The notes beneath the pieces were generated by a model. That model worked only from the letters and a program-made list of their open reading frames with translations. It was not told the origin of the DNA and made no database searches. The position numbers and the translations under genes are program-made. A stretch of 64,000 nucleotides of DNA from Parcubacteria group bacterium (GTDB lineage Bacteria; Patescibacteriota; Minisyncoccia; Moranbacterales; UBA11712). The DNA is taken from positions 178,771-242,770 of the forward strand of contig JBAZXV010000001.1 in NCBI GenBank assembly GCA_041659685.1. Reading direction: 5' to 3'. Shown here piece by piece: positions 8,778 to 24,810 of this stretch (positions within the stretch are counted from its first letter, which is position 1; each line of letters starts with the position of its first letter).

Positions 8778-11243
8778 CTATAGCAAATCATCAAGTCCCA
8801 CAGCGCAATCATCTCCTTTTCTTATGTCTCCGCCGATTAGCCTTTTGACTATCTTGTCGCCGATTTTATCCTGGATAAAACGATCGACGGATCTGGCTCC
8901 GAATTTGCGGTCAAAGCCCCTGTCGACAACATAGCTTGCGATTTCCGGATCGAACTGGATGTTAATGTTTTCTTCCTTTTTTAGGCGGGCGGCATATTTT
9001 TCGAGCTGTAGTTCGGTCACTTCCATTATTTCTTGTTTCAAAAGAGGATGGAAGAAAATAACTCCATCGAAACGATTGAGAAACTCCGGCCTGAAAATCC
9101 CCTCCTTAATAATATGATCAACCAGTTTCCCCTGAATCTCATCGGGGTTCATCCGGGCATCAACCGCTTCTTTTATGAAATCCGATCCGGCATTGGAGGT
9201 TGCGATAATTATCAAATTTCTGAAATTCACTTTTTTTCCGAAGGCGTCCGTAAGCCATCCTTCGTCAAGAATCTGCAAAAATAAGTTAAGGACATCCGGA
9301 TGAGCTTTTTCTATTTCATCAAGAAGCAGCAATGAGTATGGATTTTCCTTGACCTTATTGGTCATTTGTCCGCTCATATTTATTTCAACCGACCCGAGCA
9401 ATCGGTCAAGCGCTTCGGCTTTTTGATATTCGCTCATATCCAGGCGAATCATCCGGTTTTCGTCTCCGAAATAAGCTTCCGCCAGAGCTTTCGCTGATTC
9501 CGTTTTTCCGACGCCAGTAGGGCCCAAAAAAAGGAAACTGCCCATAGGCTTGGCGGCATTTGCCATGCCGACTCGCGCCCGCCGCATCGTTTCTGCAATT
9601 TGCTTTATGGCAAAATTCTGGCCGATTATCCGCTGATGGAGGATATCTTCAAGACTCAAGAGTTTTTCCTTTTCACCTTCCTGCATCTCGCCCAAGGGAA
9701 CTTTGAATTTTTTTGAGACCACTTCGGCAACTGTTTGCGGACTGATATGCTTTTCAGACGGTTTTTGCGACCAAAAAAGAAAAACTTCCTCCATAAGATC
9801 GAGTGCCTTTTCCGGAAAAGGAGAATCCGTAATGTATCGGTCCGAAAGCTTTACGATCTCCCTCAGAGCCTGGTAAGTGAATACAACCCTTTGCTCTTCA
9901 ATTTTTTTAAGGCCGAAAAGAAGCACTTCCATCGTCTGGTCGGCGCCTATTTCCTCAAGCTGAACTTTATCAAAATATTTGGTTATCCCCTCTTTTTTTT
10001 CTATATTTTCATGGAACTCGGCGGGAGTCGCCAGGCCGATTACTTGAAAAGTGGGAATGCTTAGGAATTCTCCAAGCACGTTTGAAATATCCTCGCCGGG
10101 ATTTTTTTGATTTGAAAGAAAGTGACGGCCGATATTATCAATAACCAAAATTATGTTTCCGGCATACGCCGCTTCAAAAAACATCGACCTCAAAATATCC
10201 TCGATTTGGTTCTGGTCGCTAAGGCCGGAGCACATTTCCCCCATATTGATTTCAAGAACTCTTTTTCCGATCAAATAAGGATTTGATTCCCCTTTTCTGA
10301 TTTTCCTCGCCAAAGAATGGACCAGAGTCCGCTTTCCGACGCCGGCTTCGCCGACAATAAAGGCGCTGTTCTGGCTGGGTCGGGTCAAAATCAGCTCCAA
10401 AAGTTCCATTTCCTGCGCCCGTCCGATTAATTTCGCGTTTTTATATTCCGTCAGATCGCCTTCTGAGAGGTCTGCCGCATACCTGTCCAGATGAACCGTG
10501 TAAGCGTAAGTCCAATACCGGCCAATAGGCAAAGTATTATAGAGGTTTTCTTTGATCCAAAACTTTTTCCTTTTTTCATTTTCCAGCCAGCGCATTGTCT
10601 CCCAATTGATAATTTTTTCAAATTCTTCCGTTGTGACATCGCATTCCCTCAGAATTTCTTTCAACGCATCCGGATCCGGCAAAGAACTTCGGTTGCCTCC
10701 CTCAAAGTCTTTTCCGATTCGCTGCCAGATCCTTGAAAACCATTTTTGCGAAATCAATTTTTCCAAACTGCCTGTCGTATTTTTTTTGGCGGCAGAAAAT
10801 GACCTCCAGGAAACAAGAGTAATGACAACCGCAACGGCGAAGGAAAAACCTTCAATAACAGCGGGAAAATACGACTTTGCGGGAACGGAATAAAAAAGCC
10901 CGACCCCTAAAAATAAAAAGAGCGGCAGGAAAAGCCACATAACCAAAATCATTAATCCCAAAACAAGAGTCGAAATTTCCGCCAACACTCCCAGGAGTAT
11001 GATAAAAGTTCTTACCGTCGCTCCTAAAAATCGGGTAATGAGATTCTCAAAGGCAGACTGCGCCAAAAGAAGCGGATGAAATCCCAGCCGCGAAACATGG
11101 GAAATATCTCTTCTCCAGGATGAAAACAATGTTCGAAAATGCCTGGAAACGCCGAAATACCACCAAAAAAATCCCAGATAATTTTTCCAAATATCCAAAA
11201 GTTTTCTTGTTCCTTGGAGATAATGCCAAGTGAGAAAATTCAT
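8778..11243 (-). CDS. membrane-anchored Clp/Hsp100-like double AAA+ ATPase
   Basis: Two Walker A motifs (GEAGVGKRT; GPTGVGKTESAKALA), a D2 Walker B (LLLLDEIEKAHPDV) and a ClpB/ClpC-like C-terminal D2-small domain. The N-terminal ~150 aa contain hydrophobic helices in place of a Clp N-domain. Start taken at MNFLTWHY (11243). Confidence 0.8.
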   Translation of the reverse strand: MNFLTWHYLQGTRKLLDIWKNYLGFFWWYFGVSRHFRTLFSSWRRDISHVSRLGFHPLLLAQSAFENLITRFLGATVRTFIILLGVLAEISTLVLGLMILVMWLFLPLFLFLGVGLFYSVPAKSYFPAVIEGFSFAVAVVITLVSWRSFSAAKKNTTGSLEKLISQKWFSRIWQRIGKDFEGGNRSSLPDPDALKEILRECDVTTEEFEKIINWETMRWLENEKRKKFWIKENLYNTLPIGRYWTYAYTVHLDRYAADLSEGDLTEYKNAKLIGRAQEMELLELILTRPSQNSAFIVGEAGVGKRTLVHSLARKIRKGESNPYLIGKRVLEINMGEMCSGLSDQNQIEDILRSMFFEAAYAGNIILVIDNIGRHFLSNQKNPGEDISNVLGEFLSIPTFQVIGLATPAEFHENIEKKEGITKYFDKVQLEEIGADQTMEVLLFGLKKIEEQRVVFTYQALREIVKLSDRYITDSPFPEKALDLMEEVFLFWSQKPSEKHISPQTVAEVVSKKFKVPLGEMQEGEKEKLLSLEDILHQRIIGQNFAIKQIAETMRRARVGMANAAKPMGSFLFLGPTGVGKTESAKALAEAYFGDENRMIRLDMSEYQKAEALDRLLGSVEINMSGQMTNKVKENPYSLLLLDEIEKAHPDVLNLFLQILDEGWLTDAFGKKVNFRNLIIIATSNAGSDFIKEAVDARMNPDEIQGKLVDHIIKEGIFRPEFLNRFDGVIFFHPLLKQEIMEVTELQLEKYAARLKKEENINIQFDPEIASYVVDRGFDRKFGARSVDRFIQDKIGDKIVKRLIGGDIRKGDDCAVGLDDLL

Positions 11244-11379
11244 TTTTATTTTTTTGATATATAAATATTTTAGCATAAATCAAGGGAAATAAAAACAACC
11301 CGGCAGACTGGTTGCTAGATCATTATACGATTAATTAATTTTACTAATCAGTTTCTATGCATATTGCTTAATTATCAAT

Positions 11380-11521
11380 TTTCCCTGTTCGATTGTGGGT
11401 GGAGAGGGATGCAAACATCGCTGCTGCGCTCCTTGAAACCCATCGGTTTCAATACTTCCGCCGCGGGAAAACTCCCGTTTTCCCGACCCCTTTCCCTGTT
11501 TGATTGTGGGTGGAGAGGGAT
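11380..11521. repeat. 31-nt direct duplication of the tRNA-Tyr 3' end/trailer bracketing an 80-nt insert
   Basis: tttccctgtt[c/t]gattgtgggtggagagggat occurs at 11380-11410 and 11491-11521 with one mismatch. The second copy overlaps the T-arm/acceptor 3' half of tRNA-Tyr. Confidence 0.85.
11405..11491 (-). ncRNA. candidate structured RNA / miniature element, copy 1
   Basis: On the minus strand there is a closing helix AGGGGT/ATCCCT. Hairpin 1 is GGGAAAAC-GGGA-GTTTTCCC (GNRA loop) and hairpin 2 is TTGAAACC-GATG-GGTTTCAA. A homologous copy lies at 23823-23911. Confidence 0.45.
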
Positions 11522-11589
11522 TCGAACCCCCGTAGCCCGAAGGCGCCAGATTTACAGTCTGGTACAATTGACCGCTCTGTCATCCACCC
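11507..11589 (-). tRNA. tRNA-Tyr (anticodon GTA), long variable arm, no encoded CCA
   Basis: Hand-folded cloverleaf: acceptor GGGTGGA/TCCACCC, anticodon stem CCAGA/TCTGG with loop CTGTAAA, variable arm GCGCCTTCGGGCTAC and T-arm GGGGG-TTCGAAT-CCCTC. Confidence 0.9.
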
Positions 11590-11602
11590 ATGTTCAATTT
11601 TG

Positions 11603-11675
11603 AGCCATCCATCGGAGTCGAACCGATAACCTACTGTTTACAAAACAGTTGCTCTGCCAATTGAGCTAGGATGGC
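11603..11675 (-). tRNA. tRNA-Thr (anticodon TGT), no encoded CCA
   Basis: Hand-folded cloverleaf: acceptor GCCATCC/GGATGGC, D-arm GCTC-AATTGGCA-GAGC, anticodon stem ACTGT/ACAGT with loop TTTGTAA, and T-arm ATCGG-TTCGACT-CCGAT. Confidence 0.9.
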
Positions 11676-11749
11676 GTTCTGGTGCAGGTGAACAAAACCG
11701 TTGTTCTGGCTGTGCGCCTCCGGCAGAAGCTACGCTGAATTTTTGTTTT

Positions 11750-12469
11750 TCAGTTCCCCAGCCTCATCCGCATTTCAATTTCTTTCAAGCTTGTTTTGGC
11801 CTTCAGATCCCTTGGACGCAGCCTAAGCACCATCTTAAAGGACTCTTTTGAGTCTTTTATGTTTCCGATCATCAAATAGTAGTCGCCCAGGTCCCGATAA
11901 GCTTCAATATCCTTGGGATTTTCCGCAATCCGATGGATCAATGCTTCTTCAACCACCTTATCCTCCGGAGCAGGCTCTTCTTTTATTATTGCAGGCGGAA
12001 TTTCGGGTTTTTTCCGAACCACCACTCCGGGAGCCAGTGTTTCGGGCTTTTTGGCTTCTCTTATTGATATATCGATATTTTCATCTTCGCTTACAAATGA
12101 AATATCGCTTTCCGTGAGATCAGGAGTTTTTATCTCTTCTCCGGGAAATAATACCTCTTCCCGGTTTTTCTTCCCGGTCCTTCTTTCCTTGATCTGCCGA
12201 AGCCAGTGGTTCAAGGCCTCTTCAGACTTTCTAAATGCAACCCTTATGTAATATAAAAGCGTCTCGAGTGTTCTTAATATGCCTTGGCCGATCATCTTGA
12301 ATCGTTCGCCTTTGTTTTTTTGGCCCGGAAAAGCTTCGGCCTGCGATTTTAAAGGCCTCTGCGCTTCAAATTTTTTAATAGCCGCCGTTTTCTTGCCCAA
12401 GACAACAGTCAGTCCGATAAGGGCGGCCAGTAGTATTATAGGCGGAACATAAAGCCAAATTGCGCTCAT
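11750..12469 (-). CDS. hypothetical membrane-anchored protein with C-terminal TPR-like repeat
   Basis: N-terminal TM helix (IWLYVPPIILLAALIGLTVVLG), a charged linker and a C-terminal AYRDLGDYYLMIGNIKDSKESFKMVLRLRP TPR-like segment. It overlaps the upstream gene by 4 nt. Confidence 0.5.
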   Translation of the reverse strand: MSAIWLYVPPIILLAALIGLTVVLGKKTAAIKKFEAQRPLKSQAEAFPGQKNKGERFKMIGQGILRTLETLLYYIRVAFRKSEEALNHWLRQIKERRTGKKNREEVLFPGEEIKTPDLTESDISFVSEDENIDISIREAKKPETLAPGVVVRKKPEIPPAIIKEEPAPEDKVVEEALIHRIAENPKDIEAYRDLGDYYLMIGNIKDSKESFKMVLRLRPRDLKAKTSLKEIEMRMRLGN

Positions 12470-23746: not shown

Positions 23747-23776
23747 AAAAAAGGCCCGTCTTTCACGGGCGTTTTT
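23747..23776. terminator. bidirectional rho-independent terminator
   Basis: An A-run, GCCCGT-CTTTC-ACGGGC, then a T-run, between convergent transcription units. Confidence 0.7.
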
Positions 23777-23822
23777 ATATATAGTCAAATGGCAAGAGCA
23801 AGAGCTATTATTTCTTCCATTG

Positions 23823-23911
23823 AGGGATCGCTCCGCCAAACGGCGACGCTCCTTGAAACCTTGCGGTTTCAATTCTTCCACCACGGGAAAACTCACGTTT
23901 CCCCGACCCCT
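23823..23911 (-). ncRNA. candidate structured RNA / miniature element, copy 2 (between rpsI stop and terminator)
   Basis: On the minus strand: AGGGGT ... GGGGAAAC-GTGA-GTTTTCCC ... TTGAAACC-GCAA-GGTTTCAA ... ATCCCT. The helices match copy 1 and both loops are GNRA here. Confidence 0.45.
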
Positions 23912-23933
23912 TTCCGCCCTTAATGTCAGGAAG

Positions 23934-24371
23934 CTATCGCTTTTTCCATTGAGGGGCGCGTCTGGCTTTTTTAAGGCCTGACTTCTTTCTCTCAACCACT
24001 CTTGCGTCTCTTGTTAAATATCCAAGATCTCTCAGGGGTTTTCGCAGCGATTCATTAAAAATGACTAACGCTCTTGCTACTCCAAGCCTGATTGCCTCCG
24101 CCTGCCCCCTTATTCCGCCTCCTCGAACAATAACGGAAGCATCGAACGAAGCTGTTTCCTGGACACTTATCAAAGGAGCAATGGCCGTATCGCGCAGTTC
24201 TACGGGACCAAAAAAATCATTCAGTTTGCGGCCGTTAACGATAAATCCTTCGTGAGAAGATTTCTTTTCATCCAAAGCAAAAAGCCTCACCTGGGCCACA
24301 GCAGATTTCCGTCGTCCGATACCCTTATAATACTTCGTCGGTTTCTTCTTTTCTTCTTTTTTTTCCGGCAT
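23934..24371 (-). CDS. rpsI: 30S ribosomal protein S9
   Basis: GIGRRKSAVAQVRL, GGGIRGQAEAIRLGVARAL and a C-terminal KKARRAPQWKKR. Confidence 0.95.
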   Translation of the reverse strand: MPEKKEEKKKPTKYYKGIGRRKSAVAQVRLFALDEKKSSHEGFIVNGRKLNDFFGPVELRDTAIAPLISVQETASFDASVIVRGGGIRGQAEAIRLGVARALVIFNESLRKPLRDLGYLTRDARVVERKKSGLKKARRAPQWKKR

Positions 24372-24393
24372 ATGGAATATTTTCGAGTAATGG

Positions 24394-24810
24394 CTAATTA
24401 GTTATCTTTTCTAACTTCTCTTTTATTCCGTGTTCCTTGTCCTTAAAAACCAAGAGTCTTTTCATCATCCGGTTTCTTAATTTATTTTTGGGAAGCATCC
24501 CGTACACTGATTCGACAACCACCTGGCGCGAATCTCTTTCCATTTTATCTTTTAACTTGCGCGATGTAATTCCTCCCGGGTAACCCGAAAAAGTGTGGTA
24601 CATTTTTTTATCCTTCTTTCCGCCGGTAGTCCTGATTTTATCAGTGTTCACCACTACCGTGAAATCGCCCCCGTCCTTGTTGGGAAGATAATCCTTTTTA
24701 TGCTTTCCCTGCAGGATAAAAGCGGCTCGCGCTGACATTCTTCCAAGAATAAAATCATCGCAGTCAAAAAGAAAATATTTCCTTGAATCCTTCGGCTGTT
24801 TGCTGTTCAT
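24394..24810 (-). CDS. rplM: 50S ribosomal protein L13
   Basis: LGRMSARAAFILQGKHK and YHTFSGYPGG motifs, in the canonical rplM-rpsI pair. Confidence 0.95.
   Translation of the reverse strand: MNSKQPKDSRKYFLFDCDDFILGRMSARAAFILQGKHKKDYLPNKDGGDFTVVVNTDKIRTTGGKKDKKMYHTFSGYPGGITSRKLKDKMERDSRQVVVESVYGMLPKNKLRNRMMKRLLVFKDKEHGIKEKLEKITN

Follow-up and report, generated by a model that had tools for sequence, protein, structure and literature searches.

The tRNA-Tyr gene of a Parcubacteria-group, Moranbacteria-like CPR metagenome-assembled genome (so named by its source label) is followed by a member of a family of small elements, designated here as E, whose core lies between two copies of the end of its host gene. 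We see about an even chance that E is a non-autonomous, integrative, homing-like cassette that recombines into the ends of conserved genes and brings a replacement end with it. The family is apparently undescribed so far, and a literature search for a tRNA-linked element of CPR bacteria and for strings of the core sequence found none. Read on the sense strand, the general geometry is a gene end (a-b), a short spacer, usually an inverted copy of the start of a (a'), E and a second a-b. In the window, i.e., the whole stretch of 64,000 nucleotides that was analyzed, a-b comprises the 3' part of tRNA-Tyr, from the T loop onward, and its trailer. Loci in other genomes are designated by L numbers.

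The tRNA-Tyr locus, its relatives and a second copy at rpsI

The original prediction was that a 31-nt duplication of the tRNA-Tyr 3' end brackets an 80-nt core, and both parts were confirmed. The repeat TTTCCCTGTTYGATTGTGGGTGGAGAGGGAT occurs at 11380-11410 and at 11491-11521 with one Y difference (0 such pairs expected by chance in 100 shuffles), and the segment between the copies is exactly 80 nt long (11411-11490). A repeat finder extended the pair to 37 nt, of which 34 are identical (11380-11416 versus 11491-11527, spacing 111). The order on the minus strand is tRNA-Thr(TGT), the first of the tRNA pair (11675-11602; ARAGORN; Rfam tRNA, 68.6 bits), the intact host gene tRNA-Tyr(GTA) (11589-11506 by ARAGORN; Rfam tRNA, 57.6 bits over 11507-11589), a 15-nt trailer, the 80-nt segment and a second tRNA-Tyr 3' end with its trailer. 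The host gene ends in ...ACCCA-CA and has no encoded CCA.

The features described below all lie on the minus strand. The upstream repeat copy, DR1 (11491-11527), comprises the T loop, the 3' half of the T stem, the acceptor 3' strand and the discriminator (11527-11506, approximately 22 nt) together with the 15-nt trailer (11505-11491). The trailer part of the 31-mer (AATCRAAC-AGGGAAA) overlaps the usual 5' flank of E, a point absent from the original prediction, and contains a degenerate inverted T-loop segment, AATCAAAC (11498-11505), at whose position other family members have the reverse complement of their host tRNA, starting at G53. The first copy of the core (11420-11495; covariance model R1, 88.2 bits, E = 4.9e-20) starts with GGAAAGGGGUC, hairpin 1 (11465-11484, GGGA loop) and the junction GCGGCGGAAGUA, and continues with hairpin 2 (11433-11452), GGAG and a short third hairpin. 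It is joined through a further junction, GAUGUUUGC (11411-11419), in which the T loop is altered (GUUUGCAU in place of GUUCGAAU), to DR2 (11380-11416), the second, spare or displaced, tRNA-Tyr 3' end and trailer. The closing helix proposed earlier (GGA.AGGGGU / AUCCCU.CUCC) reappears in the minimum-free-energy fold of 11395-11495, in which a closing stem encloses three hairpins (-42.6 kcal/mol, z = -3.45). The inverted segment of this copy is only degenerate, and in the predicted fold the conserved purine stretch GGAAAGGGG pairs with CCCUCUCC instead. Further downstream, a weak hairpin with a T run (CAACC..GGTTG TTTTT; 11291-11314) corresponds by homology to the terminator found immediately 3' of tRNA-Tyr in L002, L005 and L006, which are relatives with an empty site, and on this ground is probably the end of the tRNA transcript; a promoter and terminator scan of 11150-11850 called nothing, this hairpin included. 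The neighboring genes encode a ClpB/ClpC-type ATPase, an amidohydrolase, the 239-aa protein next to the locus, PSP1 and EF-Ts, in agreement with the predicted absence of an integrase. No integrase was found in a syntenic relative either, where approximately 10 kb on each side holds housekeeping genes only.

A strong Shine-Dalgarno-like AAGGAG lies in the core of the window copy, with an ATG 10 nt further on that opens a 16-codon ORF through the spare tRNA end (11361-11418, minus strand), and L008 has a 9-codon counterpart with the same AAGGAG-N10-ATG arrangement (10987-11016). This short ORF was set aside as a feature of the family, its start codon being missing in most members.

It had also been proposed that the tRNA-Tyr locus be compared in related genomes for empty and filled sites. 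Homologues of the adjacent 239-aa protein provided 25 metagenomic loci and one genome-derived locus, among which L002, L006 and L016 are empty and L008 is filled. In L002 and L006, tRNA-Thr and tRNA-Tyr are directly followed by the terminator and the ClpC gene, and L016 has a tRNA-Tyr one base off that of the window and no element. The arrangement of the window, with its unusual junction (GAUGUUUGCAU), recurs in L008, which is more distantly related (49% protein identity) and is the only one of 22 relatives to give a score with model R1. The acceptor 3' strand of its tRNA-Tyr differs from that of the window at three positions, and all three differences recur in its spare copy. The genome with the empty L002 site carries E at two other loci. 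For the closest relatives, with a 62-68% identical neighbor protein and all from one JGI sample, empty and filled sites were compared by intergenic lengths only.

A search with hairpin 1 revealed a second copy of E in the window, absent from the original prediction, at approximately 23915-23840 of the minus strand and directly 3' of the stop codon of rpsI, which encodes ribosomal protein S9 (23934-24398, minus; Pfam Ribosomal_S9, E = 2e-37). On the same strand, the first repeat, DR1' (23932-23955), consists of the last rpsI codons (P Q W K K R stop) and 2 nt. It is followed by CATTAAGGG (23917-23925), an inverted copy (8/9) of the repeat start CCCTCAATG, by the core (23840-23915; model R1, 79.4 bits) and by DR2' (23803-23826), a second rpsI end (P Q W K K stop) that differs from DR1' by two synonymous changes and one stop. 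The bracketing pair reads CCCTCAATGGAAAAAGCGATAGCT and CCCTCAATGGAAGAAATAATAGCT, and a strong terminator lies 3' of DR2' at approximately 23747-23770. The two cores are 88% identical over 69 nt, and in the 64-kb window model R1 found only these two copies (88 and 79 bits).

The copy at rpsI bears on the suggestion that the repeat arose as a one-off local tandem duplication or is a degenerate second tRNA-Tyr gene. The 111-nt spacing (1.33 units) and the continuation of the repeat into the 5' flank of E itself, seen in the window and in L008, are consistent with such an event. Against it stand the second copy, the family-wide recurrence of the pattern described below and the lack of tRNA similarity in E, over which neither ARAGORN nor Rfam called a tRNA. 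The one-off tandem duplication put forward in the original prediction is thus contradicted, and we regard this explanation as so improbable that it hardly needs to be considered further.

The element family and its tRNA hosts

Species-representative genomes were scanned with a degenerate hairpin-2 pattern, and at least 115 stretches were obtained. About 111 of those listed are true copies of E, a sample biased towards conserved copies by the near-invariant hairpin 2 that the pattern demanded. Almost all come from metagenome-assembled CPR genomes, which often have several copies, and they are distributed over Paceibacteria, Moranbacteria, Yanofsky-, Jorgensen-, Uhr-, Sung-, Falkow- and Doudnabacteria and genomes labelled Saccharibacteria. 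The pattern had no match in viral contigs. E had no match in Rfam 15 (tRNA, tmRNA, rtT and self-cleaving ribozymes included) at gathering or permissive thresholds; over the whole window only the two tRNAs passed, and the best scores over E were 10-19 bits, far below the gathering scores.

The core of approximately 76 nt is hairpin-rich and protein-less, in elements of roughly 80-90 nt. It is approximately 85% conserved across very distant lineages and has GNRA-type loops (among the copies listed); hairpin 1 has C-GNNA-G loops and one compensatory pair, A-U to G-C, in 10/36 sequences. Among the copies listed, similarity was 0.891 within one genome versus 0.852 between genomes, which points to an intragenomic route or to co-evolution with a host factor, and no significant grouping of variants by host tRNA was found across genomes (0.862 versus 0.852). 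The third hairpin contains GCGAAGC, an exceptionally stable DNA mini-hairpin, in 25 of the 103 copies among those listed (e.g., L051, L059 and L079), a feature that is compatible with a single-stranded DNA stage but no proof of it. Several bins with E carry labels from outside CPR: L059 (Bathyarchaeia), L040, L066, L076 and L138 (Bdellovibrionales), and L118 (Gammaproteobacteria). These are probably mis-binned CPR contigs, not true occurrences outside CPR; the L059 contig carries a bacterial tRNA-Ile/tRNA-Ala spacer.

A same-strand tRNA gene lies at most 320 nt upstream in 74 of the 114 copies listed, with at least 17 amino-acid specificities represented, and in 67 of these 74 copies a repeat of its own 3' end immediately follows the core. 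Among the copies listed, the start of this repeat lies at -15 to -23 and its end mostly at +0 to +2; in apparently young copies it is up to 60 nt long and takes in the trailer and the terminator. In spare copies, the T loop has usually changed, with GUGAGAU and GUGAAAU as the commonest forms, and only 5 of 34 copies listed keep the T loop of the host.

These numbers separate the explanations offered in the original prediction. A tiny non-autonomous element that targets tRNA 3' ends fits best, the same core standing behind at least 17 tRNA specificities with the repeat in 67/74 copies listed, and a deletion remnant of a larger island is at variance with a constant size and content in at least 100 loci without cargo. 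The att-like interpretation held in one respect, since an insertion-type repeat does flank E at the tRNA end; a classical integrase att site was not supported, as there is no integrase, the targets are many and include protein-gene ends, and the target is also present as an inverted copy. In the usual att geometry, the 3' end of a tRNA is directly repeated from within the T loop onward. The repeat confirmed in the window has this geometry, as a scar would if a tyrosine-integrase island or prophage in tRNA-Tyr had since been lost nearly completely. The same history would have to account for a 76-nt core of constant size at at least 110 loci without cargo, for targets that comprise tRNAs of at least 17 amino-acid specificities and nine protein families (copies listed), for the absence of an integrase within approximately 10 kb and for the lack of matches in viral contigs. 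A scar of this kind is therefore very improbable.

Two ideas on how the element meets the tRNA were rejected. An exact insertion point at tRNA position 56|57 holds for approximately half of the copies, the others having 1-nt indels or other replacements. An origin by reverse transcription of mature tRNA was judged too weakly supported, a CCA that is absent from the gene being present in only 3 of 49 spare ends and the reverse in 0. The three spare copies with CCA, where the gene has CA or another sequence, are L056, L091 and L123. The tRNA genes of the CPR loci mostly end in discriminator-CA rather than discriminator-CCA, and the CA is kept in the spare copies. In L047, approximately 300-420 nt into the region, the repeat spans the tRNA end, the terminator, the inverted copy and GGGAAAGGGG, after which a different core-like sequence follows; this tandem suggests, as far as its sequence goes, that elements accrete at one site and that a second, divergent type exists.

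From about G53 onward, the host tRNA has its reverse complement in the 5' flank of the core, which the original prediction did not mention. This flank tracks the T-loop variant of the host, with ATTTGAA at TTCAAAT hosts and AATCGGA at a TCCGATT host. Its complementarity to the real tRNA end exceeds that to the spare copy in 33 of the 43 copies listed and falls short of it in 2. Together with the spare copy, the flank forms an outer stem of approximately 9-21 bp that encloses the core, is unique in sequence at each locus and contains G.U pairs. This helix is no mimic of a tRNA minihelix, since it is offset from the acceptor and T stems: its pairs involve T-loop residues, the 3' half of the T stem and no more than 3-6 residues of the acceptor, and another sequence stands in place of the T loop.

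These flanks allow for an RNA switch, in which a' would pair with either the real tRNA or mRNA end or the decoy copy, the core would act as a sensor, and the maturation or stability of the host RNA end would thereby be controlled. Such a switch is favored by the way in which the flank reproduces the host from G53 and follows its T-loop variants, by the preference for the real end (33/43 versus 2, copies listed) and by the fact that all three segments track the host sequence. It is difficult to reconcile with window-like copies, which are almost devoid of a', and with the order of synthesis, in which the tRNA cloverleaf would fold before a' is transcribed; the elements at 5' ends of protein genes and the synonymous bias described below add an orientation problem and an unexplained observation, respectively. 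We consider the switch improbable.

A more general possibility is that E is a functional small RNA or a cis-acting module of tRNA operons that is co-transcribed and cut out by tRNA-processing enzymes. The spare end and its complement would then form a protective or processing helix that ends in discriminator-CA, and the repeat would exist because the RNA needs the helix. This possibility is consistent with the position of E on the strand of the tRNA in 74/74 tRNA-associated copies listed, as well as on that of its rpsI, rpoD, mreB and mraY hosts, with the conserved loops and the compensatory pair of hairpin 1, with the G.U pairs of the outer helix and with the discriminator-CA kept in spare ends. 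In L059, L132 and L143, E abuts the 5' end of the next tRNA, so that RNase P would set the 3' end of E, and in L058 and L137 the spare end is identical to the tRNA over 25/25 positions, with a tRNA-E spacer that has visibly diverged between the two loci. Terminator hairpins that often lie between the tRNA and E (L046, L052, L067 and L118) argue in the other direction, as does the offset of the outer helix from a true acceptor/T-stem mimic, and the protein-gene hosts weigh further against an RNA function.

Protein-gene hosts and the proposed replacement of gene ends

Seventeen further copies have no tRNA host and lie at the termini of conserved genes from nine protein families (copies listed), with repeats of 14-85 nt. 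Eleven of the 17 are at 3' ends and on the same strand, namely S9 (nine in the count, which leaves out two recognizable S9-end copies, L111 and L115), MraY, MreB and RpoD. The remaining six are at 5' ends and on the opposite strand: EF-G twice, L14, a LepA-like GTPase, a DinB-like polymerase and RNase H. The core is always oriented away from the intact gene in the 17 protein-gene hosts listed.

In coding hosts, the two repeat copies differ by 38 synonymous versus 10 non-synonymous changes (copies listed), with p = 3.6e-8 against a synonymous fraction of 40%, which is our own estimate for the decay of a dead copy. This synonymous excess indicates that both copies derive from functional alleles. 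In L131, the complete sigma-70 C-terminus is present through the stop codon in both copies, and in L040 the spare copy retains what reads as its own GTG start. Functional ends in both copies are as expected if an incoming element brings a replacement end and displaces the native one.

A functional RNA does not account for these hosts well. In 6 of the 17 protein-gene hosts listed (fusA, rplN, LepA-like, DinB-like and rnhA), E lies upstream and on the opposite strand, and transcription of the host would hence yield the antisense of E. Likewise, the need for a helix leaves the synonymous bias, the duplicated coding ends, the stop codons and the terminators unexplained. Taken together, we regard an RNA module as rather unlikely.

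In the homing-like cassette that we prefer, E would enter the terminal part of a conserved gene by recombination inside a shared segment and bring a replacement gene end, so that the gene would stay intact and E would be flanked by one complete and one spare end. The flanking direct repeats would also permit precise loss of the element. The recombination may follow a Campbell-like or a double-strand-break-repair route and may involve a circular or single-stranded intermediate and an enzyme acting in trans; the colonization of new loci and the roles of a' and the core are likewise inferred. Against this cassette speak the tRNA repeats, which at 17-22 nt are short for recombination of the RecA type, the inverted copy a', for which a simple Campbell model has no place, and the conservation of the whole core with its GNRA-type loops, which keeps the functional-RNA explanation alive.

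If the cassette interpretation is true, CPR bacteria harbor a very widespread, tiny and protein-less element whose targets are the most conserved sequences of the genome, i.e., tRNA 3' ends and the termini of S9, sigma-70, EF-G, L14 and MreB, and which spares its host through the duplicated or replaced gene end. Inverted and direct target copies would be built around a strongly conserved structured core. Such an element would provide a new model for the persistence of selfish DNA or RNA in minimal genomes, would account for the many tRNA fragments in CPR genomes, and would point to a recombination or nuclease activity supplied in trans, perhaps with programmable targets. Gene calling and tRNA annotation in CPR metagenome-assembled genomes can be led astray by the spare gene ends and tRNA fragments.

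Known systems and other insertions in tRNA genes

E was compared with each known system by the defining features of that system, and at least one such feature was lacking in every case. Integrase islands and prophages reportedly use att sites in tRNA genes, for which Williams is said to have defined a T-loop sublocation class in 2002. E resembles these sites in that the repeat begins in the T loop, the gene is rebuilt by an element-borne end, the native end is displaced to the far side, and tandem accretion occurs (L047). Unlike these sites, E has no integrase and a cargo of only approximately 80 nt, one and the same core uses many tRNAs and protein-gene ends including 5' ends, and an inverted target copy is present; the rule of one target per family that holds for integrase elements does not hold for E.

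The E. coli tyrT locus reportedly contains 178-bp repeats and the rtT RNA, as described by Rossi in 1981 and by Bosl and Kersten in 1991. In both cases, the tRNA-Tyr 3' end (its terminal approximately 19 nt in E. coli) is repeated downstream inside the same transcript, whereas the tyrT sequence is unrelated, proteobacterial, confined to one locus and without an inverted copy.

MITE, REP and Correia-type repeats share with E a small size, multiple copies, hairpin formation, the lack of protein-coding capacity and a location at gene ends. However, these repeats have constant terminal inverted repeats and short, fixed target duplications, neither of which was found in E; its flanks, inverted and direct alike, are taken over from the host gene, and conservation is seen in the interior instead of at the ends.

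Casposons integrate by Cas1 at tRNA 3' ends, with the last approximately 14-15 bp duplicated on both sides and the tRNA kept intact (PMC5137440). A duplicated tRNA end likewise flanks E next to an intact tRNA. In contrast to E, casposons are large and encode a casposase and a polymerase; their terminal repeats are fixed, as is the length of the target duplication. E encodes no protein and has a repeat of 14-85 nt, a variable length that does not match the fixed 14-15-bp duplication of a casposon-derived miniature element.

Two further systems are intronless homing by a free-standing endonuclease, as in T4 SegB in a tRNA cluster (PMC2330249), and the omega-RNA elements of TnpB/IscB, in which a scaffold is followed by a flank-derived guide (PMC13565253). 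Intronless homing is similar to E, as interpreted here, in that a selfish element spreads into conserved genes through break repair, the flanks are co-converted, and synonymous polymorphisms occur near the site. In E, the flanks at coding hosts come from different functional alleles (38 versus 10, p = 3.6e-8), as in a homing cassette. Omega-RNA elements are similar in that a conserved, RNA-like scaffold directly abuts a copy of the host target, although a guide function of that copy in E is putative. E differs from both in having no linked nuclease gene and in having the target copy in both orientations. By this comparison, E appears closest to tRNA att sites and casposon duplications in outcome, to E. 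coli tyrT in appearance, and to intronless homing and omega-RNA elements in logic, and there is a real chance that it is of a new kind.

Tentatively, and well short of an even chance, E may be the scaffold of a system for integration or homing guided by homology, acting as an RNA or in the form of a single-stranded DNA hairpin that mimics the double-stranded target. This system would colonize the ends of essential genes and tRNAs while a recoded spare end keeps their function. If true, selfish elements would have, in addition to introns and inteins, a third mode of residing in essential genes, and in this mode the element would require no protein gene of its own.

Insertions of other kinds were observed among the relatives of the tRNA-Tyr locus. 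In L013 (10897-11470), and also in L007 and L014, an 84-aa GIY-YIG nuclease ORF (Pfam E = 7.5e-16) and a complete tRNA-Tyr gene interrupt an older tRNA-Tyr gene at its anticodon loop, after which a still older tRNA-Tyr 3' fragment follows. Judged by its sequence, this arrangement resembles serial replacement of the tRNA gene by a free-standing homing cassette, which brings a replacement tRNA of its own. A second kind of insertion, in the T loop, was found in L006 (7678-7744), L019 (1023-1098), L024 (4648-4750), L021 (4095-4370) and L022 (11053-11480), where a GC-rich hairpin (CCCGCCCCGC...GCGGGGTGARAAT) takes the place of the T loop in tRNA-Thr and tRNA-Tyr fragments; the loop of this hairpin holds a whole new tRNA-Tyr gene in L021 and L022. 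The motif GCGGGGTGARAATCC is present in the loci of 5 relatives. The spacers between tRNA-Thr and tRNA-Tyr are unusually long in L010 and L011 (686 nt), L012 (811 nt) and L018 (477 nt), and these may contain further homing cassettes.
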